Assembly: GCA_963720805.1 (NCBI GenBank)
Contig: CAVRGT010000001.1
Span: 170,187-234,186, forward strand
Origin: an uncultured Solirubrobacterales bacterium
GTDB lineage: Bacteria; Actinomycetota; Thermoleophilia; Solirubrobacterales; 70-9
Direction of reading: 5' to 3'
DNA: 64,000 nucleotides
Position numbers and translations under genes: made by a program. The notes below the pieces were generated by a model. That model saw nothing but the letters and a program-made list of their open reading frames with translations, searched no databases and was not told the origin of the DNA. Within the stretch, counting starts at the first letter, position 1. Every line of letters starts with the position of its first letter. This document shows positions 20,234-64,000 of the stretch, piece after piece.

Positions 20234-20241
<8 letters not shown>
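19123..20241 (+). CDS. carA: Carbamoyl-phosphate synthase small (glutaminase) subunit
   Basis: GICLGHQLL catalytic Cys motif and a full-length CarA-like sequence. Confidence 0.95.
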
Positions 20242-23389
<3,148 letters not shown>

Positions 23390-39717: not shown

Positions 39718-40992
39718 TTGAGCGCTGTCCTTAGCACGCAGGACTCGGGCGTCCGGGTCGTCACCGAGGAGGTTCCCTCGGTGCGATCCGTGGCGCTCGG
39801 GCTCTGGGTGCGCACCGGTTCTCGCAACGAGACCCCGGCCCAGGCCGGCGTCTCGCACTTCCTCGAGCACCTGCTCTTCAAGGGCACGGCGCGTTACTCG
39901 GCGATCGAGATTGCCGAGAAGCTCGACGGCCTCGGCGCCTCGGTCAACGCCGCGACCGGCAAGGAGACCACCCACCTGCACGCCCGCTTCCTCGACGAGC
40001 ACACCGAGGAGGTCTTCGACCTGCTGGCCGAGATGCTGCTGGCGCCGACCTACCCGGAAGTCGACTCCGAGCGCGAGGTCGTGCTCGAGGAGATCGCGAT
40101 GTATGAGGACGAGCCGCAGGATCGCGTCCACGACATCCTCGCCGAGGCGGTCTTCGGCCGCCACCCCTTGGGCCGCCGCGTGCTCGGCGAGGCCGAGGTG
40201 ATCAGCTCGGTCCCGGTGCCCGATATCGAGGCCTACCGCAGCTCTCGCTATACGGGCGAGACGATCGTCGTCGGCGCCGCCGGCAACGTCGATCACGCCC
40301 GCATCGCCGAGCTCTCCCAGCGGCTGGTGGGGCCGCCGAGCGCCGCCGCCAACGGGCACCCGGCATCGGCGCAGACGGATGAGTCTGCCCGCCTGTGCTT
40401 CTACGAGAAGGACACCGAGCAGTACCACATCTGCTTCGGCGCTCCCGGCATCACCCGTGAGGACGAGCGGCGCTACGCGCTTGCCGTCCTCGACTCGATC
40501 TTCGGCGGCTCGAGCTCCTCACGACTCTTTCGCGAGGTGCGCGAGAAGCGCGGCCTCGCCTACGCGGTCGGCTCCTACAACGAGCAGTACACCGACTCCG
40601 GACTGATCGCCAGCTACGTCGGCACCCGCGAGGACAACGTCGAGGAGGCCTGCGCGATCATCGGCGCCGAGATGGCCCGACTGCGCAGCGAGCCGGTCTC
40701 GGCCGAGGAGCTCTCGCGGGCGAAGGAGAACGTCAAGGGCCGCCTCGTGCTCTCCTCGGAGTCGACCGCGGCGCGGATGTCGCGGATCTCGCGCGCCACT
40801 CTGTTCAACCTGCCGATCGACAGCCTCGACGAGATAATCGCCAAGGTCGACGCGGTCAGCGTCGGCGACCTGACCGCGCTTGCCGAGGAGCTCTACGGCC
40901 CCGAGCGGCTCTCCGCCGCCTGCGTCGGCCGCGACGAGAGCCGCTTCCGCGAGGCGCTCGGCCCGGTCAGCGAGACTCTGGTCGCGGCATGA
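39718..40992 (+). CDS. M16-family (pitrilysin-like) zinc peptidase
   Basis: Inverted zinc motif HFLEHLLFKG, in the conserved position after pnp. TTG start assumed. Confidence 0.88.
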   Translation: MSAVLSTQDSGVRVVTEEVPSVRSVALGLWVRTGSRNETPAQAGVSHFLEHLLFKGTARYSAIEIAEKLDGLGASVNAATGKETTHLHARFLDEHTEEVFDLLAEMLLAPTYPEVDSEREVVLEEIAMYEDEPQDRVHDILAEAVFGRHPLGRRVLGEAEVISSVPVPDIEAYRSSRYTGETIVVGAAGNVDHARIAELSQRLVGPPSAAANGHPASAQTDESARLCFYEKDTEQYHICFGAPGITREDERRYALAVLDSIFGGSSSSRLFREVREKRGLAYAVGSYNEQYTDSGLIASYVGTREDNVEEACAIIGAEMARLRSEPVSAEELSRAKENVKGRLVLSSESTAARMSRISRATLFNLPIDSLDEIIAKVDAVSVGDLTALAEELYGPERLSAACVGRDESRFREALGPVSETLVAA

Positions 40993-41654
40993 TCAGGGTC
41001 GCGGTCTCCGGCGCCGCCGGGCGCATGGGCCAGGCGGTCTGCGAAGCCGTCGAAGCGGCCGCTGACACCGAGCTCAGCGGCAAGGCGGATCCCTCGCTCG
41101 GGGTCGCGCTGGCCGAGGTGCTGGGCGACGCCGACGTCGTCGTCGACTTCAGCACGCCGGCAACGGCGCTGGGCAATGCCGAAGCCTGTCTGGCGGCCGG
41201 CGTGCACGTGGTCGTCGGCACCACCGGCTTCGATCTCGACGCGCTGAGGGCCGCGGCCGAGGCCTCGGCCGCGAACTGCTTTGTCGCTCCCAACTTCGCG
41301 ATCGGCGCCGTGCTGCTGATGGAGGTCGCGCAGACGATCGCCCGCCACATGCCCGAGTGCGAGATCATCGAGTTGCATCACGACCGCAAGCTCGACGCGC
41401 CTTCGGGCACGGCCAAGCTCACCGCCGAGCTGATCTCCGGCGCCGGTGGCAACGTCCACGCGCCGATCCACTCGGTTCGCCTGCCCGGCCTGGTCGCCCA
41501 TCAGGAAGTGATCTTCGGCGGCGAGGGGCAGACCCTCAGCCTGCGCCACGACTCGATCGACCGCCGTTCCTTCATGCCCGGCGTGCTGCTCGCCGTGCGC
41601 AAGGTCGCGGGTCTTCCCGACCGCTTCACCATCGGCCTGGAAAAGCTACTCTGA
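40989..41654 (+). CDS. dapB: 4-hydroxy-tetrahydrodipicolinate reductase
   Basis: VSGAAGRMG dinucleotide motif and ELHHDRKLDAPSGTA signature. Confidence 0.92.
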   Translation: MIRVAVSGAAGRMGQAVCEAVEAAADTELSGKADPSLGVALAEVLGDADVVVDFSTPATALGNAEACLAAGVHVVVGTTGFDLDALRAAAEASAANCFVAPNFAIGAVLLMEVAQTIARHMPECEIIELHHDRKLDAPSGTAKLTAELISGAGGNVHAPIHSVRLPGLVAHQEVIFGGEGQTLSLRHDSIDRRSFMPGVLLAVRKVAGLPDRFTIGLEKLL

Positions 41655-41659
41655 GCGCG

Positions 41660-42538
41660 ATGAAGCAGATTCGAGGAATCCTTACTGCGATGGCGACGCC
41701 GTTCGACGAGAGCGGTGCCGTCGACGAGCCCGCCGCGCTGAAGCTGGCGACCCACCTGCTCGAGCACGGCTCGCACGGCCTGGTGATCTCCGGCTCGACT
41801 GGCGAGGCACCGACGCTGACTGACGAGGAGGCGCTCGTCCTGCTGCGGGCGGTGCGCCGGGAGGTCGGCGACGACGTGCTGCTGGTCTGCGGCACCGGCA
41901 CCAACTACACCGATCACTCGATCGAGCTGACCAGCGGCGCAGCCGAGGCCGGGGCCGACGCGGCGCTGATCGTCACGCCCTATTACAACAAGCCCAACCG
42001 CGCCGGCATCCAGGCTCACTTCGAAGCGATCGCGGCAGCGGTCCCGAATTTGCCGCTGATCGCCTACAACATCCCCTCGCGGGTGGTCGTCAACGTGCCG
42101 CCCGCCGATCTGGCGGAGCTGGCCAAGATCGACAGCGTCGTCGCGGTCAAGCAGGCCAACAACGATGAGCTGCAGCCGATCGAGGGGCTCGAGATCCTCG
42201 CCGGCAACGACGACATCTTCCTCAAGACCCTTGAAATCGGCGGCGCCGGCGGGATCTGCGTCGCCTCGCAGCTGGTCGGCCCGCAGATGCGGGAAGTCTG
42301 GGACGCGGCCCAGGCGGGAGAGATGGAGCGAGCGGGTCAGATCGACGCCGGCCTGCGCCAGCTCTACGCCGCAATGGGCGTGACCACCAACCCGATCCCG
42401 GTCAAGGCGGCGCTGGAGATGACCGGCCTGATTCCGTCCGGAAGACTTCGACTGCCCCTCGTTCCCGCCGATGCGGAGCAGAGGGCGACTGTGCGAGCGG
42501 CGCTCGAGAGCGTCGGCCTCACCGCGGTGACTCCCTAG
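41660..42538 (+). CDS. dapA: 4-hydroxy-tetrahydrodipicolinate synthase
   Basis: MATPFDESG, SGSTGEAPTLT and YNIPSR motifs. The ATG at 41660 is preferred over the long upstream extension of ORF 41357. Confidence 0.92.
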   Translation: MKQIRGILTAMATPFDESGAVDEPAALKLATHLLEHGSHGLVISGSTGEAPTLTDEEALVLLRAVRREVGDDVLLVCGTGTNYTDHSIELTSGAAEAGADAALIVTPYYNKPNRAGIQAHFEAIAAAVPNLPLIAYNIPSRVVVNVPPADLAELAKIDSVVAVKQANNDELQPIEGLEILAGNDDIFLKTLEIGGAGGICVASQLVGPQMREVWDAAQAGEMERAGQIDAGLRQLYAAMGVTTNPIPVKAALEMTGLIPSGRLRLPLVPADAEQRATVRAALESVGLTAVTP

Positions 42539-54434: not shown

Positions 54435-55757
54435 GTGGCAAAGCGCTATCACGTAACAACCTTCGGCTGTCAGATGAACGTGCACGATTCCGAGCGCATG
54501 CAGGGGATGCTCGAGTCGCTGGGCTATGAGGAGGCCGAGGGTCCCGACGACGCCGATCTGATCCTCTTCAACACCTGCTCGATTCGGGAGTCGGCGGACA
54601 ACCGGTTCATCGCTCGTCTCGGCGAGGCGAAGCGGCTCAAGAACGAGAACCCCGACCGGATCGTCGGCGTGGGGGGCTGCTGGGCGCAGTCGGTCAAGGA
54701 CGAGGTCTTCCAGCGCTTTCCCTTCGTCGACGTCGCCTTCGGGCCGGGCCAGATCCACAAGCTGGCCGAGTTCCTCAACTCCGACTCGCTCAGCGCTCAG
54801 GGCTACTTCGAGTTCGAGGACTTCTCCGGGCACCTGCCGACCCGACGCCTGCGCGAGTTCCAGGGCTGGCTGCAGGTCTCCCAGGGCTGCAACTGCAACT
54901 GCGCCTATTGCATCGTTCCCTCGACCCGGGGGCGTGAGGTAAGCCGCGACCCGGCCGAGCTCGTCGCCGAGGCCCAAGCGTTGGCCGCCGACGGCGTCAG
55001 CGAGGTGACGCTGCTCGGCCAGAACGTCAACAGCTACGGCCGCGACCTGCCAAAGGACAGCCGGATTGGCTTCGCCGAGCTGCTCGGGCTTGTCGATGAG
55101 ATCGACGGGATCGAGCGCATCCGCTACACCAGCCCGCACCCCAAGGACATGAAGGAGGACGTAATCCGCGCTCACGCGGACCTCTCCTCGGTCTGCGAGC
55201 ACATCCACCTGCCACTGCAGTCGGGCTCGAGCGCGATCCTCAAGCGGATGCGGCGCACCTACGATCGCCGGCGCTACATGGATCGTGTCTCGCTGATCCG
55301 CGAGCACGTTCCAGACTGCGCGATCACCACCGACATCATCGTCGGCTTCCCGGGCGAGACCGAGGAAGATTTCGCCCAGACGCTGGAAGTGGTCGACGAG
55401 GTCGGCTACGACAGCGCCTTCACCTTTATCTTCTCGCCGCGGCGGGAGACCGAGGCAGCCGAGTTCGGCGACCAGATTCCCCACCCGGTCAAGGTCGAGC
55501 GGATGGAGCGGCTGGTCGAGCTGGTGCAGCGGCGGGCGACCGAACGGGCTCAGCGGTTCGTCGGGCGGGAGGTAGAGGTCTTGGTCGAAGGCACCAGTCG
55601 CACCGACGAGACCCGGCTGCGCGGCCGCAGCAGGCACAACAAGGCGGTCAACTTCGAGGGCACCGCAGGCCCCGGCGAGTTGGTCGAGGTCGAGATCACC
55701 GCCGCAACCTCTCAGACCCTTACCGGGGCCGAGAGGTTGCTCAGCCGCGCGCTCTGA
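54435..55757 (+). CDS. miaB: tRNA-i6A37 methylthiotransferase MiaB (radical SAM)
   Basis: UPF0004 N-domain (TFGCQMN), the radical-SAM CxxxCxxC motif (GCNCNCAYC) and a TRAM domain. Confidence 0.93.
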   Translation: MAKRYHVTTFGCQMNVHDSERMQGMLESLGYEEAEGPDDADLILFNTCSIRESADNRFIARLGEAKRLKNENPDRIVGVGGCWAQSVKDEVFQRFPFVDVAFGPGQIHKLAEFLNSDSLSAQGYFEFEDFSGHLPTRRLREFQGWLQVSQGCNCNCAYCIVPSTRGREVSRDPAELVAEAQALAADGVSEVTLLGQNVNSYGRDLPKDSRIGFAELLGLVDEIDGIERIRYTSPHPKDMKEDVIRAHADLSSVCEHIHLPLQSGSSAILKRMRRTYDRRRYMDRVSLIREHVPDCAITTDIIVGFPGETEEDFAQTLEVVDEVGYDSAFTFIFSPRRETEAAEFGDQIPHPVKVERMERLVELVQRRATERAQRFVGREVEVLVEGTSRTDETRLRGRSRHNKAVNFEGTAGPGELVEVEITAATSQTLTGAERLLSRAL

Positions 55758-55759
55758 CG

Positions 55760-56488
55760 GTGCACGTGATCGCAATCTTCGGTCCCACCGGTGTGGGGAA
55801 GACCGGCGTCGCGATCGAGCTCGCTGAGTTGCTGCGGGCGCGGGAGGAGGATCCCGTGGCGATCTCCTGCGATGCGCTGCAGGTCTACGAAGGTCTCTCG
55901 GTCCTGACCGGCGTGGCCTCCGCCGAGGAGCAGGCTCGCCTCGAGCACAGGCTTGTCGGGTTCGTGCCGGTGACCGAGCGGTTCAACGTCGGCGATTACA
56001 TGCCGCTCGCGCACGCCGAGATAGATCGGGCACTGGAGGCCGGCCGGCGGCCGATTGTCGTCGGCGGGACCGGCCTCTACCTGCGAGCAGCGCTGGGCGA
56101 GCTTTCCCTCGTCAAGGCGCCGGCGGAATCGAAGGACTCGGAGCTGTGGTCGCCCGAGACGCGGCATCCGACGGCGATCTTTGGGCTCGATATGGAGCGC
56201 GAGCAGCTCTACGAGCGGATCGACGCGCGGACGGAGGCGATCGTTGCGGGCGGGGCGCGCGCGGAGGTCGAAAGGGCGGAGGCGGCAGGGCCGTCGCGGA
56301 CCGCGCGCAAGGCACTCGGCTTCGACGAGGTGCTCAGCGGCGACCTGGCGCGGATGCAGCAGCGCTCGCGCAACTACGCCCGCCGTCAGTTGACCTGGAT
56401 GCGCAAGGTTCCCAACCTCCGCTGGATCGACCGCGCCGAGCGCACCGACGCGGAGGTGGCCGCCGAGATCGCCACCCACCTGCGCTGA
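55760..56488 (+). CDS. miaA: tRNA dimethylallyltransferase MiaA (compact, 242 aa)
   Basis: P-loop GPTGVGKT, VGGTGLY and RNYARRQLTWMR motifs. Confidence 0.88.
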   Translation: MHVIAIFGPTGVGKTGVAIELAELLRAREEDPVAISCDALQVYEGLSVLTGVASAEEQARLEHRLVGFVPVTERFNVGDYMPLAHAEIDRALEAGRRPIVVGGTGLYLRAALGELSLVKAPAESKDSELWSPETRHPTAIFGLDMEREQLYERIDARTEAIVAGGARAEVERAEAAGPSRTARKALGFDEVLSGDLARMQQRSRNYARRQLTWMRKVPNLRWIDRAERTDAEVAAEIATHLR

Positions 56489-56563: not shown

Positions 56564-57410
56564 ATGAGATTTGAGAAGTGGCAGGCGCTGGGGAACGACT
56601 ACTTGATCGTCGAGGCGGAGGGGCTTCCGTGGGAGTTGACGCAGGGGCGTGTCCGGCTGCTCTGCGATCCGCATTTCGGGGTCGGATCGGACGGCGTGCT
56701 GCTGCTCTCGCGCAGCGAGGACCCGGCATACGTTGCCTCGCTGCGGATCTTCAACCCCGACGGCTCCGAGGCCGAGCTCTCCGGCAACGGCGCGCGGGAG
56801 GCGATTCTCTACCTGCGCCGGCACGGCTGGACAGCGGCGGACACCTTCTCGATCCTCACCGCCGCCGGGCCGGTGACGCCAACTATTACTTCGGAGCGCA
56901 TCTGCTCGGTGGCGATGGGGCGCGCAAGCACGGCGTCAAAGGATTTTCCATCGGGGCCGGGTGACGGTCGCGGATTAATCGAGGTCGCCGGTCGCGAGAT
57001 GGGCTTTCCAGCACGTCTCGATCGGCAACCCGCAGTGCGCGATCGTGGTCGGCGGGGAGCTGGAGAGCCTCGATCTGGGCGCGATCGGTCCCGGGATCGA
57101 AGGCCACGACCTCTTCCCCAACCGCACCAACGTCTCCTTCCTGCGTATCGACGGCAGCCAGGTCAGGGCGCGGATTTTTGAGCGCGGCGTGGGGGAGACG
57201 CTCTCCTCGGGGACAGGGGCCAGTGGCGCGGCGGTTACGGCCTTTCTCGACGGCGCCCCGAGCCCGATCACGGTTGAGCTCGACGGTGGTGAGCTGGTGG
57301 TCGAGATCTCCGATCAGCTCGACGTCACCCTGAGCGGCTGGGCCGAGCAGATCTGCGCCGGAGAGCTCTCGGGCGAGCTGCTGAGTGCACTTGCCGAGCT
57401 GGACGGCTAG
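56564..57410 (+). CDS. dapF: Diaminopimelate-epimerase-family protein; one apparent 1-nt insertion; both catalytic Cys positions are Ser
   Basis: KWQALGNDYLIV, FNPDGSEAELSGNGARE and, after a frame change at ~56999 (GAG-A-TGG), FQHVSIGNPQCAIVV...FERGVGETLSSGTGASGAAV. Confidence 0.8.
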
Positions 57411-57459
57411 ATTTCCGCGCCGATGGCGAATCTCGGACCCGTCCAAGCGGCTGGAGGCG

Positions 57460-58594
57460 ATGCCTCCCTACAAGTTCGAGGAACTGGAGCGAACGATCGC
57501 CGACAAGCGCGCCGCCGGCATCGACGTGATCAGCCTCGGTATCGGCGACCCCGACGAACCGACCTATCCGCACGTCGTAGAGGCGATGCAGGAGGCGGTG
57601 GCCGAGCCCGGCAACCAGCAGTACCCGAGCAACCGCGGCCGGGCCGAGTTCCGCCAGGCATTCGCCGAGTTCTACGACCGCCGCTTCGGGGTCGAGATCG
57701 ACCCGGAAACCGAGGTGATCCCGGCGATCGGCGCCAAGGAGTGCATCTACAACCTCTGCTTCGCCTTCCTCGACCCGGGCGACGTCGCGCTCGCCTCCGA
57801 CCCCGGCTACCCGGTCTACACCGGCGGTCCGATTCTCGCCGGGGCGAATGCCGAGCTGCTGCCGCTGGTCCCCGAGCTGGGCTTCGCGCCCGACCTCGCC
57901 GCAATCCCCGCCGACGTCGCCGCCAAGGCCAGGCTGATGTTCATCAACTACCCCAACAACCCGACCGGCGCCGTCGTTCCCGAGGGCTTCTTCGATCGCG
58001 TCGTCTAGTTCGCCCGCGAGCACGAGATCCTCGTCGTCCACGACAACGCCTACTCGGAGACGACCTACGACGGTTACGTCGCGCCCAGCTTCCTCGCCAC
58101 GCCCGGCGCCAAGGAGGTCGGAGTCGAGGTCTTCTCGCTCTCCAAGGGCTTCAACATGACCGGCTGGCGCTGCGCCGCGATCCTCGGCAACGCCGAGGCC
58201 GTCGCAGACCTACTGGCGGCTGAAGACCAACGTCGACTCCGGCCTCTTCGAGGCGGTGCAGATGGCCGGCGTCGCCGCGCTGCAGGGCCCCAGCGGACCG
58301 CTGCAGCGGATGAACGAGACCTACACCCGCCGCCGCGACCTCGTCGTCGGCGCCCTGCGCGAGATCGGCGTCGAGGTCAGCGCGCCGAAGGGCACGATCT
58401 ACGTCTGGGCCCCGGTCCCCGAGGGCCACACCTCGACCTCCTTCGCCGAGCTGGTACTCGAAGAGGCCGCCGTGGTCGTCTCGCCGGGCTCGATGTACGG
58501 GCCCAGCGGCGAGGGCTTCTTCCGCATCTCGCTGACCACGCCCGACGAGCGCATCACCGAGGCGGTCGAGCGGATGCGCAAGTACCTGGCCTGA
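57460..58594 (+). pseudogene. dapL: LL-diaminopimelate aminotransferase (DapL-type, class I aminotransferase) with an in-frame TAG and one frameshift
   Basis: MPPYKFEELERTIADKRAAGIDVISLGIGDPDEPT... and [12 protein letters not shown] (PLP Lys). TAG at 58006-58008 where homologues have a sense codon ([18 protein letters not shown]). The frame changes near 58195-58205 (..GNAEAV / [18 protein letters not shown]..). Confidence 0.8.
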
Positions 58595-58604
58595 TCAGGA
58601 ATGG

Positions 58605-58721
58605 TCTTCCCGGACGGGAAGAAGTTGTGCCAATTCCCAACCAAAACGGCCGAATCATCCCGCCCGGGAAGATCTAGCCGGTTCTAGCCTTGATCTGGCT
58701 AGTATCTTCCCGAGCGGGATG
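58605..58721. promoter_or_regulatory. Three palindromic operator-like sites upstream of hipB
   Basis: TCTTCCCG-GA-CGGGAAGA (58605-58622), CATCCCG-CC-CGGGAAGAT (58656-58673) and TATCTTCCCG-AG-CGGGATG (58703-58721). The last overlaps the hipB ATG. Confidence 0.6.
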
Positions 58722-58940
58722 CCCAATTACGACCGAGTTCAAAGCCCTGAGGACCTTGGAGCGCGGATACGCATGCGCCGGACCGATCTGCGCCTAACGC
58801 AGGAGGAGGTCGCCGGCGTCGCCATGGTCACCCCACGCCTGCTGGGGGAAGTCGAGAGGGGTAAGCAAACGACCCAGCTGAACGGGCTCCTGCGGATCCT
58901 TTCCGCCTTGGGCCTCGACCTCTTTGTGCGAGCGCGATGA
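58719..58940 (+). CDS. hipB: XRE-family HTH antitoxin (HipB-like)
   Basis: 73 aa with LGARIRMRRTDLRLTQEEVAGVAMVTPRLLGEVERGK. ATGA overlap with the hipA N-terminal ORF. Confidence 0.85.
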   Translation: MPNYDRVQSPEDLGARIRMRRTDLRLTQEEVAGVAMVTPRLLGEVERGKQTTQLNGLLRILSALGLDLFVRAR

Positions 58941-60194
58941 GCGCCCTCGATGTCTATTTTCACTCCGATCTGGTCGGCAGACTGGAGCGGCACGACCAGG
59001 CCCGGCTCGAGTTCGCCTACGAGCCCTCATGGGCGAAGCAGGGCGAAGTGCCGCTCTCGTTCAGTCTGCCGCTCAGAAGCGAGCCCTTCGGCGACGCTGA
59101 GTGCCGGCCGTTCTTCGCCGGGTTGTTGCCCGAGGGCGAGTTCCTCAAATCGATCGCGCGGGCATTCCAAGTCTCGGCCGACAATCCTTTTAGCGTCCTC
59201 AGCGAAATTGGAGGGGAGTGCGCCGGCGCGGTGTCGCTGGCGTCGCCTGGTCAGGAACCCCCGTTCGCCGAGCCGACATCTCCCACCTGGCTCGAGGAAG
59301 AGGAGATGGGCAGGCTGCTGGCCAAACTCCCGAGCCGCCCGCTGCTGATCGGTCTGGACGGGGAGGACGAGGGCGTCCGACTCTCCCTCGCCGGCGCGCA
59401 GGACAAGCTGCCCGTCCTCGTCAACGAAGTACAAAGCTCGGCATCACACGGTGTCATCCGTCCGAGCACACACAGAGTCAAAACCCCTATCCCGGATGTC
59501 GAAGGAATGGTCGCCAACGAGGCCTACTGCATGGCCCTCGCAGCTGAAGTCCGGTCTGACCGTTGCCGAGGCGACGCCAATACGCTGTCGGTGCTCAGGT
59601 AGGCGCTTCTGGTCACGCGCTACGACCGCATCGCAACTGATGATGGAGTCCGTCCGCGCCTCCACCAGGAGGACTTCTGTCAGGCCCTCGGTTGCCCGCC
59701 GGCCGCAGAAGTACCAAGGGCCGAAGGTGGGCCGGGTGTGGCAGGCCGTGGGGCGCTGCTGCGCAATCGGGTCGGCGGCTCCGGCGGTCCAACTCCTTGC
59801 CTTCCTCGATGCCCTGATCTTCAACCTTGCCATCGGCAACGCCGACGCACACGCAAAGAACTTCTCAATGCTTTTGGAGGGTGAGCAGAATTCGCCCCGT
59901 ATCGCACCGCTCTACGAATTCGCCGTCAACCCGGCGTTTACGGCCCATGTTTTTTGGGCGCAAGATGGCGATGAAGTATGGTGGCGAGTACCGGTTCGAC
60001 CGGATCCGCCGTCGCCATATGGAGAGACTGGCGGCAGAGCTTGGGATCTCAGACGTCAATTGTTCTCGCCCGCATCAGCGACCTTTGCCACGACCTCCGG
60101 CGCACATCCCGGGAAGCTCGCAACCGCCTGCCCGACGCCTGGCGGGGACGTTTTCAATACCTTGACAGCATCGAAGAGGTTGTTCGTGGGATGA
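58937..60194 (+). pseudogene. hipA: HipA-family serine/threonine kinase toxin, multiply frameshifted
   Basis: HipA motifs are spread over all three + frames: N-domain ...SLAGAQDKLPV...PSTHRVK; GLTVAEATP; ALLVTRYDRIATDDGVRPRLHQEDFCQALG; KYQ; LLAFLDALIFNLAIGNADAHAKNFSML...RIAPLYE; KMAMKYGGEYRFDRIRRRHMERLAAELGIS. At least five or six frame changes are needed. Confidence 0.85.
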
Positions 60195-60235
60195 TGGACG
60201 AACTCTTGGTGTGTTGTCGCCGAACCTGCCTGAGC

Positions 60236-61086
60236 TCACTTCAGCTTTGCGCTCGGCGCGCTTCCTGCCAGCACCGGTTGAGGCCCCGCCACTGGTATTG
60301 GGGCGGGGGACTGTACTGGATCAGCTCCTCTTTGGCCTCCGGGGGCATCAGCGGCATTCTTGGCGACGCGCTCACGGTGGCGGCGCTCGTAGTCATCCTC
60401 CGACAGCTCGCGGGCCAGGTCGGCCTCCTGGCGCAGGCGCCGGCTGGACTTCCTCCAGGCGCTCGATCGGCTTCCTCGATCGCGCCGAAGTGGGTGAGGG
60501 CGAGGCGCTCGGGGCGCCAGTGACTCGACCAGGGGGCGATCGAGTCGAGCCAGATCTCGACGTCGATGTCTGGGGGCGGGGAACTCGGCATGCCCGAACT
60601 CGACGCCAGGGATGCGGAACCGCGGCGACGTCGCCGACGAAGGCGGTGCCACTCTCCTCATGGAAGTAGCTGACGTGGTGGGAGGCGTGGCCCGGGGTAT
60701 AGGCGACCCGCATGCCGAGTACATCCTCGCCGCCCGCCAGCGGCTTCAACGTCGGCCTCGGGCACAGGCACGATCTCACCCCTAAGCTCCTCCATCCGAT
60801 CACCGTAGAGCCGCTCGGCGCTGGCCAGCAGCTTTGAGGGGTCAACCAGGTGCCGCGCTCCGCGCTCGTGCACGTAGACCTCCAGATCGGGCCAGCGCCG
60901 CACCAGGGCGCCGGTCGCAGCGGCGTGGTCGAGATGAATGTGAGTGAGCAGCAGTGCTCGCGGCTGCTCACCGTCGAGAGCCGCCAACAGCGTCTCCATC
61001 GTAGACTCCGCCTGCTCGGCGCTGAGCGGGGTGGCGATGTCCTCCAGGGACTTCCGCTCGGCCTTGACGCCGAGCGCCAGCTCCAC
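60236..61086 (-). pseudogene. MBL-fold metallo-hydrolase remnant, multiply frameshifted and apparently 5'-truncated
   Basis: Fragments lie in different minus frames: ALLLTHIHLDHAAATGALV...VYVHERGARHLVDPSKLL; LKPLAGGEDVLGMRVAYTPGHASHHVSYFHEESGTAFVGDVA; PPPDIDVEIWLDSIAPW...RLALTHFG; MPPEAKEELIQYSPPPQYQWRGLNR. Confidence 0.75.
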
Positions 61087-61101
61087 CAGACCGCCAGATC
61101 A

Positions 61102-62463
61102 TCATGATCGGCGCCGATCACGAAGCGCGAGCACGGTGTCGCCGACCTTGCCGCTGCCGACCAGCTTGGCGAAGAGCAGCGGGCCGGTGATGCCACCGGC
61201 CGCGGTGCCGATCGCGTAGAAGAACGCGATCGCCATCGCCCGGGTCTCCATCGGGAAGATCTCGCTGACCGTCAGGTACGCCGCGCTGGCGCCGGCCGAG
61301 GCGAAGAAGAGGACCACGCACCAGCACGCGGTCATGCGTGGTCGCGTTGAGTGCGCCGGCGTCGAACAGCCAGGCGGTGCCGAGCAGCAGCACGCCGGAG
61401 ACGATGTACGTGCCGGCGATCATCGAGCCGGCGGCCGACCGTGTCGAAGAGCCGGCCCAGCAGCAGCGGGCCGAGCAGGTTGCCGACCGCGATGACCGCG
61501 AAGTAGTAGCCGGTGTTGCCGGACGGCACCTCGAAGAACGTCTGCAGGATCTGGGCGAAGCCGAAGGTGATCGCGTTGTAGAGGAACGCCTGGCCGATGA
61601 AGAGCGAGAAGCCCGAGCGTCGCGCGCTTCGGGTAGCGCGTGAACAGCGTCTTCGCGATCGTGCACGAAGCCGATGGTCTTGCGCTGCTGGATCTCGATC
61701 GTCGCTGTCGACCTCGGCGAGGTCCTTGCCGGTCTCCCGGTCGACCTGCCTGCTCGACGACGTCGACGAGCTGCTCCGCCTCGTCGCCCGGCCGTGGATG
61801 AACAGCCAGCGCGGGCTCTCCGGCACGTGCCGCCGGACCAGCAGGATCACCAGGCCGAGCACGACGCCCAGGCCGAACGCGACCCGCCAGCCGAGGTTGG
61901 CCGGCAGGCCGTTGAGCAGCGGCACGGTCAGCAGCGCGCCGATCGCCGCGCCGAGCCAGAAGCGTGCCGTTGATGATGATGTCGATCCGGCCGCGGTGCT
62001 TGCGCCGGGATCAGCTCGTCGATGGCCGAGTTGATCGCCGCGTACTCGCCGCCGATGCCGATGCCGGTGAGGAACCGGAACAGGAAGAACCACCAGGCGT
62101 CGAAGGAGAGCGCGGTCATCGCGGTGGCCGACCAGGTAGACGGCCGAGGGTGATCATGAACAGCTTCTTGCGGCCGAACCGGTCGGTCGAGCCAGCCGAA
62201 GAACAGCGCGCCGATGCAGGCGCCGGCCACGTAGAGCGCGGCGGCCAGGCCGGTGACCTGGCTCTGCGTGATGTCGAGGCCGCTGCCCGGCTCGGCCAGC
62301 TGGCCGGACGAGGTTGCCGACGATCGTGACCTCGAGGCCGTCGAGGATCCAGACCGTGCCGAGGCCGATCACGATCATCCAGTGCCAGCGGCGACCACGG
62401 CAGCCGGTCGAGCCGGGCGGGGACGTTGGTCCGTACTGTGCCGGTCTGCACGTCGGCGCTCAT
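61102..62463 (-). pseudogene. MFS transporter (metabolite/sugar:H+ symporter-like), multiply frameshifted
   Basis: Start [24 protein letters not shown] (ATG at 62463). [69 protein letters not shown] and FFASAGASAAYLTVSEIFPMETRAMAIAFFYAIGTAAGG are found in alternating frames. Confidence 0.8.
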
Positions 62464-62642
62464 GACGCGCTCCGGATGGTGGGGGAGGTGGGGGCGCGGA
62501 GAAGCGCCTCCGGCGAGAGCTGTTCGTCCATGGCGGCCCAGATGCCCCGCCGCCAGAGGCGTCAATCCTGCTCGGGGGTTTCCGGCTGGGCGTCGGCTGG
62601 ATGCGGGGTGGGAGCCGGGTGGGAGCCGGCTGAAGGCCGGAC

Positions 62643-62670
62643 GGGGGCCGGACCGGACGGTCCGGCCCCC
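62643..62670 (-). terminator. GC-rich stem-loop just downstream of the MMPL stop (terminator-like, no U-tract)
   Basis: GGGGGCCGGACC-GGAC-GGTCCGGCCCCC, a perfect 12-bp stem 6 nt from the stop at 62676. Confidence 0.45.
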
Positions 62671-62675
62671 ACGGG

Positions 62676-64000
62676 TCAGCGGGCGCCGACCAGCTCCGGC
62701 GCGGGGGCGGGCGGCGGCTCGGCCGGCGGGGTGGCCGGCCGGCGGCGCAGGAAGCGCGGCGCCCACCAGTTCGCGTCGCCGAGCAGCGTCATCACCGACG
62801 GCAGCACCACCGCCCGGATGATCGTCGCGTCCAGCAGGATCGCCGCCGCCAGGCCGACGCCGAGCTGCTTCATGTCGATCGTGCTGAGCGTGGCGAAGAT
62901 CGAGAACACCGCCGACCATCACGATCGCCGCGCTCGTCACCATGCCGGCCGAGGCGGTGATGCCGTGCGCCACCGCCTCCCGGTTGGGCACGCCGCGGTC
63001 GACCGCCTCGCGGATCCGGCTGACCACGAAGACGTGGTAGTCCATCGACAGGCCGAACAGCACCACGAACAGGAACAGCGGCAGCCAGGTGACGATCGCG
63101 CCCATCGAGGTGAAGCCGAGCAGCCCCTCCGCCCAGTGGTTCTGGAAGACCAGCACCAGCAGGCCGTACGCGGCGGCCGGCGGAGAGCAGGTTGAGCAGG
63201 ATCGAGGTCAGCGCGACGACCACCGACCGGAACGTCCAGCGCCATCACCAGGAACGTCAGCGCCAGCACGAACGCGACCACGAACGGCAGCTTGTGCCCG
63301 ATGTGGTCGGCGTAGTCCTCGCTGGCGGCGACGCCGCCGCCGACCGCGTACTCCTCGCCGGGGATGCCGCCGAGCGCGGCCGGCACCAGCTTCGCGCGCA
63401 GCTCGTGCAGCGACTCGGCGGCCTCGTCGGCTGCGGCCGGCGAACGGGGTGGCGACCTCCAGCGCGACGACCTCCGGTCGGCCGACACGTCGATCTTCGG
63501 GCCGTGGCCTCGAGCCGGCGCGAAGAGCGGGTCGCGCTGGCGTGCCGCGGGCCAGGTCGGTCAGCGCCGGCCTGGACCGCGGTCGGCCTGGCTCGCCGGC
63601 GCCTCGACGGCCACCAGGTGGCTGGTGCCGTTGCTCGGGAACGCCGCGGCGAGCCGGTCGTACGCCTGCATGGCCGGGGTGGTGCGCGGCAGGTCCTCGG
63701 TCCCGGGAACTTCAGCTTCATGCCCGAGCGCCGGGGCGGCCAGCGCGAGCAGCAGCGCCGACCGAGACGGCGAGGGTGGCCGCCGGGTGCTCGCAGCGCC
63801 GGGCGCAGCACGCCGGCCAGAACCGCGGCCGGCGCCGGCCGCGCGCCGGCGGGCGGTGAGGCGCCAGAGCAGCGGCACCCGGGGCCGGTCGACCCAGCGG
63901 CCCAGCTTGGCCAGCAGCGCCGGCAGCACGGTCAGCGAGCCGATCACGGCGACCGCGACGACCAGGATCGAGCCGACGGCCAGCGACGAGAACGTCGCGT
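62676..64000 (-). pseudogene. MMPL/RND-superfamily membrane transporter, C-terminal half, multiply frameshifted; continues past the window end
   Basis: MMPL-type segments lie in alternating minus frames: IGSLTVLPALLAKLGRWVD; KLPFVVAFVLALTFLVMAL; VVALTSILLNLLSA; LVFQNHWAEGLLGFTSMGAIVTWLPLFLFVVLFGLSMDYHVFVVSRIREA; FSIFATLSTIDMKQLGVGLAAAILLDATIIRAVVLPSVMTLLGDANWW. Confidence 0.8.

Follow-up and report, generated by a model that had tools for sequence, protein, structure and literature searches.

Solirubrobacterales share a diaminopimelate epimerase family protein with serine at both catalytic cysteine positions

Our analyses of a 64,000-nucleotide stretch of DNA (referred to below as the window) have identified a dapF gene, by our interpretation the one that serves a Solirubrobacterales bacterium (Thermoleophilia, Actinomycetota) as its housekeeping diaminopimelate epimerase (DapF), in which serine is found at both of the positions that correspond to the catalytic cysteines. 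DapF is the textbook example of a cofactor-free racemase employing a thiol/thiolate pair and it is also an antibacterial target. The replacement of both cysteines, together with that of an active-site histidine by glutamine, defines a Ser/Gln/Ser type of the enzyme which, on the evidence of the comparisons presented here, is a fixed and selected state of the whole order and not a product of decay. The observations as a whole are likely to be jointly explained by a housekeeping Ser/Gln/Ser DapF that works in the synthesis of meso-diaminopimelate (meso-DAP), with the frame break seen in this gene and the lesions in the neighboring gene dapL being errors of the assembly.

Natural DapFs containing two catalytic serines have already been published with bench work (Lamer, van Belkum, Chen et al. 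2025, J Mol Biol 437:169375; PMID 40774471) and, as this work is related in PMC13728532, they are active. Such natural forms overturn the thiol-pair rule for DapF. The gene described here extends the known distribution of such forms to an abundant soil order, the entirety of which would rely on a Ser/Ser enzyme as its sole DapF. What is possibly new is that the Ser/Gln/Ser signature of this order is distinct from that of a multi-phylum Ser/His/Ser family, its origin being probably separate. The Ser/Gln/Ser type also offers a comparison for understanding how a serine hydroxyl gains the acidity or basicity that is needed for abstraction of the alpha-proton.

Family identity and active-site residues

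In the assembly, dapF is divided between two reading frames of the forward strand. The N-terminal part (frame A; 56564..56998, +) encodes residues 1-145, which include the motifs GNDY and FNPDGSE and the first catalytic-position serine, while the C-terminal part (frame B; 57000..57410, +) contains GNPQC, RTN, ERG and the second catalytic-position serine and terminates in a TAG stop codon at 57408-57410. The 1-nucleotide insertion that was noted in an initial sequence-only reading of this region is present in the assembly as an extra A at position 56999 (+; GAG-A-TGG), which shifts the frame and is absent from every orthologue compared. The protein obtained by reading through this position scores 185.5 bits against the NCBIfam equivalog model for DapF (TIGR00652; cut-off 114.65 bits), both of its PF01678 domains lie over the cut-off in a profile search of the genome, and alignments with 16 solved DapF sequences cover it from one end to the other (best E value 1e-42, with Anabaena 9mro), the structures so matched including the enzymes from Arabidopsis (3ejx), E. 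coli (4ijz) and H. influenzae (1gqz). An AlphaFold2 model was examined for an intact orthologue (P0014, 88% identical) in place of the window's own broken protein. This model (pLDDT 95, pTM 0.90) has the two-domain pseudo-symmetric DapF fold and matches the cyanobacterial DapF 9mro with a TM score of 0.89 and an rmsd of 2.2 Å, and its best 26 matches in the PDB are all either DapF or DcsC.

In the alignments with solved DapFs, the segment ELSGNGAR of the window protein is placed on EMCGNGIR, and TLSSGTGAS is placed on TLACGTGAC. The textbook catalytic cysteine pair is therefore absent, serine being found both at the position of Cys73 (codon TCC, 56780..56782, +) and at that of Cys217 (codon TCG, 57207..57209, +) in the H. 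influenzae numbering. The sequence-only reading had recognized the serines at both of these sites and the loss of the neighboring cysteines, while allowing that its manual alignment could be wrong. Both observations are upheld by HMM and structure-database alignments, the neighboring positions being occupied by glutamate (E79) and, at the last position of GTGAC, by serine; a misalignment with the catalytic cysteines located elsewhere is ruled out by four independent PDB alignments and by all of the multiple sequence alignments, which consistently give serine. The same reading counted GNPQC among the retained motifs of the fold, and in this respect it was mistaken, since the canonical motif is GNPH. 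Column statistics indicate that the histidine of this motif is 100% conserved in both of our comparison sets (viz. canonical and Ser/His/Ser DapFs), and the glutamine found here (codon CAG, 57033..57035, +) thus constitutes a third deviation in the active site. The residues N11, N64, G74, N75, N155, N189, E206, R207, and G216, which we take from the H. influenzae structures to be those that bind diaminopimelate, are all invariant in the DapF of Solirubrobacterales. On the role of His159 and Glu208, no statement was found in the review PMC8142540.

Conservation of the Ser/Gln/Ser state and its relationship to other DapF types

The Ser/Gln/Ser combination is found in all 109 of the named Solirubrobacterales loci that were examined, and likewise in 30/30 genomes of the genus and the order, within which the identity of the proteins ranges from 77 to 86% (genus) and from 58 to 69% (order). 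Thousands of intact, 281-aa relatives of the window DapF are available. The serines are encoded among the orthologues by TCC, TCG, TCA, TCT, and AGC, a synonymous turnover of codons which indicates that the amino acid itself is held by selection, and the median pairwise dN/dS within the genus is about 0.29. The suggestion that such a specific replacement of cysteine by serine is not what random decay produces is borne out by the conservation of the state in 109/109 orthologues and by this codon turnover, and the conservation of Ser/Ser in the lineage, proposed as a check, is now established. A number of frameshift-translated fragments of Solirubrobacterales dapF, recognizable by their Arg/Pro-rich tails, also serve as representatives of many of the nearby 50%-identity clusters; the abundance of these fragments among the representatives suggests that this lineage is often represented in public data by error-prone assemblies.

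A library search followed by tabulation of the active-site residues has distinguished three groups in the vicinity of the query, viz. Ser/Gln/Ser, Ser/His/Ser, and Cys/His/Cys. The canonical Cys/Cys enzymes (EC 5.1.1.7), for which the structures considered were those from H. influenzae (1GQZ/2GKE), E. coli (4IJZ), Anabaena (9MRO), C. glutamicum (5H2G), and M. tuberculosis (3FVE), share with the window type the family score, the length, the two-domain fold, the substrate-binding residues (N11, N64, G74-N75, N155, N189, E206-R207, and G216-T217), the gene neighborhood and the role in the pathway. They differ from it in both catalytic cysteines, which are replaced by serine, in the histidine of GNPH, which is replaced by glutamine, and in the residues E79, S191, F205, S214, and G221, which are fixed in the window type. 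Apart from its catalytic trio and some changes that are private to it, the Solirubrobacterales type therefore resembles the Cys/Cys enzymes. Serine in place of a catalytic cysteine within the same fold is also found in the laboratory mutants C73S and C217S of the H. influenzae enzyme (PDB 2Q9H and 2Q9J), which are catalytically hindered and have been used to trap open forms (PMC12039745); these mutants, however, are single engineered changes, whereas the window type carries both serines in a naturally selected background.

The Ser/Ser DapFs of Lamer et al. (2025), as they are described in PMC13728532, have in common with the window protein the DapF fold, the annotation as DapF, serine at both sites, a place in the DAP/lysine pathway and a serine state that is selected; exchange of serine for cysteine inactivated the Ser/Ser DapF of Anabaena sp. 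YBS01. According to the same account, this strain possesses a Ser/Ser copy alongside a Cys/Cys copy, whereas in the window genome the Ser/Ser copy is the sole DapF found. The Anabaena enzyme presumably belongs to the large Ser/His/Ser family, whose members are characterized by the motifs EAEKSGNGLR, GNPHC, and GYTLASGSSS and are found in Chloroflexota, Verrucomicrobiota, Planctomycetota, Desulfobacterota, Methylomirabilota, and cyanobacteria (Nostoc, Aphanothece). The Ser/His/Ser family is about 37-41% identical to the Solirubrobacterales type and its active-site signature is different: column statistics give K72, I79, H157, Q191, E203, W205, Y211, and S217-S219 (SSS) for the former and L72, E79, Q157, S191, R203, F205, E211, S214, and T217-G218-A219 for the latter.

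The other orders of Thermoleophilia contain DapFs of either the Cys/His/Cys or the Ser/His/Cys type, and one cluster labeled as Gaiellales is of the Ser/His/Ser type. The Ser/His/Cys combination was observed in a single genome of Thermoleophilia as well as in a Gaiellales-labeled cluster, and Cys/His/Ser was observed in six of the actinobacterial genomes examined, five of them from one family and one from another. These mixed-state DapFs of Actinomycetota are members of the same family in which one catalytic position is changed and the histidine is retained; they may represent intermediates in the replacement of cysteine by serine or, alternatively, enzymes that have another activity.

In a maximum-likelihood tree, the Ser/Gln/Ser clade (support 100/99) groups with the Gaiellales Ser/His/Ser sequence (98/95), and both are nested within a Thermoleophilia clade that includes Cys/Cys members (100/98), apart from the large Ser/His/Ser clade. 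This topology is kept (100/100) after removal of 45 columns around the trait. A quick tree also indicated separate origins, but an AU test on it did not reject one Ser/Ser clan. A single Ser/Ser clan received p = 0.45 in the AU test when all columns were used and p = 0.07 (delta lnL 26.6) when the trait columns were removed, so that the clan is not rejected in either case; the sampling of Cys/Cys sequences in these trees is limited and the tested group was defined after the first tree had been seen. The trees thus favor an independent origin of the Ser/Gln/Ser type, and a common origin is disfavored but not rejected (AU p = 0.07). We tentatively propose, as a possibility that we hold at somewhat less than even chances, that the Ser/Gln/Ser DapF represents a thiol-free enzyme evolved for a second time and independently, which would have arisen within Thermoleophilia from Cys/Cys ancestors, possibly by way of forms like its Ser/His/Cys and Ser/His/Ser relatives, and which lacks the active-site histidine and would activate its serines differently from the cyanobacterial type.

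Pathway context and function of the enzyme

The source genome is a MAG of 2.67 Mb in 13 contigs that is 82% complete, and the window corresponds to positions 170187-234186 of its contig C1. The named relatives are all MAGs of Solirubrobacterales/Thermoleophilia, many of them from long-read projects, and the gene order miaB-miaA-dapF-dapL is common to these relatives. In the window, gene-order comparison places miaB at 54435..55757 (+) and miaA, the upstream neighbor of dapF, at 55760..56488 (+), and the comparison with orthologues places dapL, which encodes an LL-diaminopimelate aminotransferase of the TIGR03540 type, at 57430..58594 (+). Two further genes of the same pathway also lie inside the window, viz. 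dapB (40989..41645, +; C1:211175-211831) and dapA (41678..42511, +; C1:211864-212697). A gene for MurE carrying the DNPR motif, which marks it as the DAP-type enzyme, is located on contig C6 (161047-162456, -), and lysA, for which a search had been suggested, is present and intact on contig C7. Cultured Solirubrobacterales have cell walls with meso-DAP, which is diagnostic for the order (PMC3035278; PMC10722151).

It had been considered that a canonical dapF might exist elsewhere in the genome, in which case the present copy would be a decaying paralogue. The PF01678 locus at the window dapF is, however, the sole one in the 82%-complete genome, and a second canonical dapF was accordingly not found in it. 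A search for the alternative route through meso-DAP dehydrogenase (Ddh) was likewise negative in this genome at its 82% completeness, and among 80 genomes of the order with a completeness of 90% or more Ddh exceeds the cut-off in a single one; a Ddh bypass is accordingly considered improbable. DapF2, a PLP-dependent enzyme (GapMind 2026, PMC13759103), was also rejected as a substitute, because no match to PF01168 (Ala_racemase_N), and hence neither a gene of the DapF2 type nor a recognizable alanine racemase, was found in the 82% of the genome that is covered. In two genomes from another family of the order, a second and divergent DapF-like paralogue (32-35% identity), which has cysteine at the first catalytic position, was observed (G032:C1:250628-251317 and G027:C3:87026-87775); such paralogues were not seen in the window's genus.

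The presence of a sole dapF together with the genes of the DAP pathway, no bypass having been found, in an order with meso-DAP walls is most simply read to mean that the Ser/Gln/Ser protein makes meso-DAP. In the route that we infer, LL-DAP supplied by the adjacent DapL would be converted to meso-DAP by the Ser/Gln/Ser DapF and would then be used by MurE and LysA. The chemistry would, by analogy with the Ser/Ser precedent of 2025, be a two-base 1,1-proton transfer; its acid/base pair would consist of the hydroxyls of the two serines, which would lie at the N-termini of the active-site helices, one at each of the two, and stand in for the thiol/thiolate pair. The residues E79, S191, F205, S214, and G221 are candidates for the activation of the serines where a conserved histidine is lacking. 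Two points count against this explanation, viz. that the otherwise invariant histidine of GNPH is lost and that the published precedent appears to be of the cyanobacterial type, in which the surroundings of the serines are different (K72, H157, Y211, and SSS).

The same loss of the histidine, along with the hindered catalysis of the C73S and C217S mutants of canonical DapF (PMC12039745; PDB 2q9h and 2q9j), is what can be said for the view that DAP epimerization is not the activity of the Ser/Gln/Ser protein, in which case it would have another activity or would merely bind a DAP-like substrate, and an unrecognized enzyme would make meso-DAP. We regard this view as improbable. Natural Ser/Ser DapFs are reported to be active in the account given in PMC13728532, neither ddh nor a gene of the Ala-racemase fold nor a second dapF was found in the 82%-complete genome, and the order has meso-DAP walls (PMC3035278). 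Strong purifying selection, the synteny with dapL and the retention of all of the substrate-binding residues also speak against it. The sequence-only reading had left the choice between a functionally diverged member of the fold and a dead enzyme. The former part of this alternative holds insofar as the Ser/Ser state is selected and lineage-wide; the latter is not supported for the lineage, given that dapF is the sole copy, that it is syntenic with dapL, that the pathway genes are present, that the walls contain meso-DAP, and that active Ser/Ser precedents exist. Annotators should therefore avoid calling such genes dead.

Frame breaks in dapF and dapL and quality of the assembly

The description of the adjacent dapL as damaged is accurate for the assembly, in which this gene is interrupted by a TAG in frame at 58006-58008 and, near 58204, by a +1 insertion relative to its orthologues. 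All eight of the orthologues compared have either TCC or GAC at the position of the TAG, which represents a two-base change. Three lesions are thus present within 1.3 kb of dapF-dapL, two further breaks are listed on contig C1, and few frame breaks are found in the window upstream of these genes. Other assemblies from the genus that have few contigs and low completeness also contain a broken dapF, the breaks being at different positions.

To place these lesions in context, frame breaks were counted in this MAG in comparison with 480 kb of a congener (G002), it being required that the partner be intact and read in a sense-like frame to either side of the break and that both flanks pass a GC3/GC1>GC2 filter. 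By this count the MAG has 33 unique frame breaks and the congener has 3, over ~89,500 aligned codons; 20 of the 33 are +1 insertions, they are not linked to homopolymers, and 5 of the 28 affected genes contain at least two breaks. Genome-wide counts of in-frame stop codons are useless as a measure of error in this material, since off-frame ORFs of high-GC DNA give equal noise in both genomes. Among individual genes, carB (20234-23318; 1452 bits) has a +1 insertion near 22986 (CCCAG-C-CTGCA) relative to the congener, with which its protein is 96% identical, and the murE gene on contig C6 has two compensating frameshifts that enclose about 65 out-of-frame codons containing a TGA. The compensating frameshifts in murE, an essential gene, are strong evidence of assembly noise.

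From the approximately tenfold excess of frame breaks over the congener and from the breakage of the essential murE as well, we infer that the break at 56999 is probably an artefact of the assembly. The lesions in dapF and dapL are best accounted for by errors in the consensus of a noisy MAG of the long-read type, near a contig end with poor support. What weighs against this is that three lesions within 1.3 kb exceed the prediction from the average error rate. That clustering, in neighboring genes that belong to one pathway, is also an argument that these are real pseudogenes, dapF and dapL having been truly lost from this organism, which would then need external DAP or lysine while its relatives keep a working Ser/Gln/Ser enzyme; the stop codon derived from TCC, which is a change of the substitution type and not a classic indel error, and the small number of breaks upstream in the window point in the same direction. 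We nevertheless consider true loss unlikely, although slightly less so than the absence of epimerase activity discussed above. Lesions of the same kinds occur in carB and murE, the breaks over the same genes are about ten times those of the congener and are biased to +1 insertions, and they cluster elsewhere too, as the genes with at least two breaks illustrate. Both dapF and dapL are situated where the terminal ~19 kb of the contig begins, a zone in which long ORFs collapse, their proteins are 81-89% (DapF) and 94-97% (DapL) identical to those of the relatives with no excess of missense change, and lysA, dapA, and dapB are intact. A third view, by which the break would serve programmed +1/-1 recoding or would be a genuine strain polymorphism with a function, is effectively refuted: the extra base is not conserved, being found in no orthologue compared, other assemblies of the genus break dapF at different places, and the sequence GAG-A-TGG contains no slippery run. 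Under the preferred explanation by assembly errors, the earlier idea that these defects, in dapF and in dapL, have consequences for the synthesis of lysine by this route is probably wrong, the lesions being consistent with assembly noise, and the frame breaks in this MAG provide no basis for inferring a loss of lysine synthesis.

The last ~19 kb of contig C1 (window 57800-64000 and onward) has lost nearly all of its long sense-like ORFs. The share of such ORFs is 0-0.3 from C1:228000 to the end of the contig at 245,988 and 0.5-1.0 before this point, and the density of indels relative to the congener G002, which is 4 per kb at 56-60 kb of the window, reaches 17 per kb in the last interval (60-64 kb). 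This part of the contig has the appearance of a contig end with poor support or else of an accessory region that varies among strains (hipBA, transporters). At 58719-60200 of the window, an intact gene for a HipB-like antitoxin (TIGR03070) is followed by a gene for a HipA-like kinase toxin, in which the HipA N-terminal domain is recognizable and which is spread over at least three frames.
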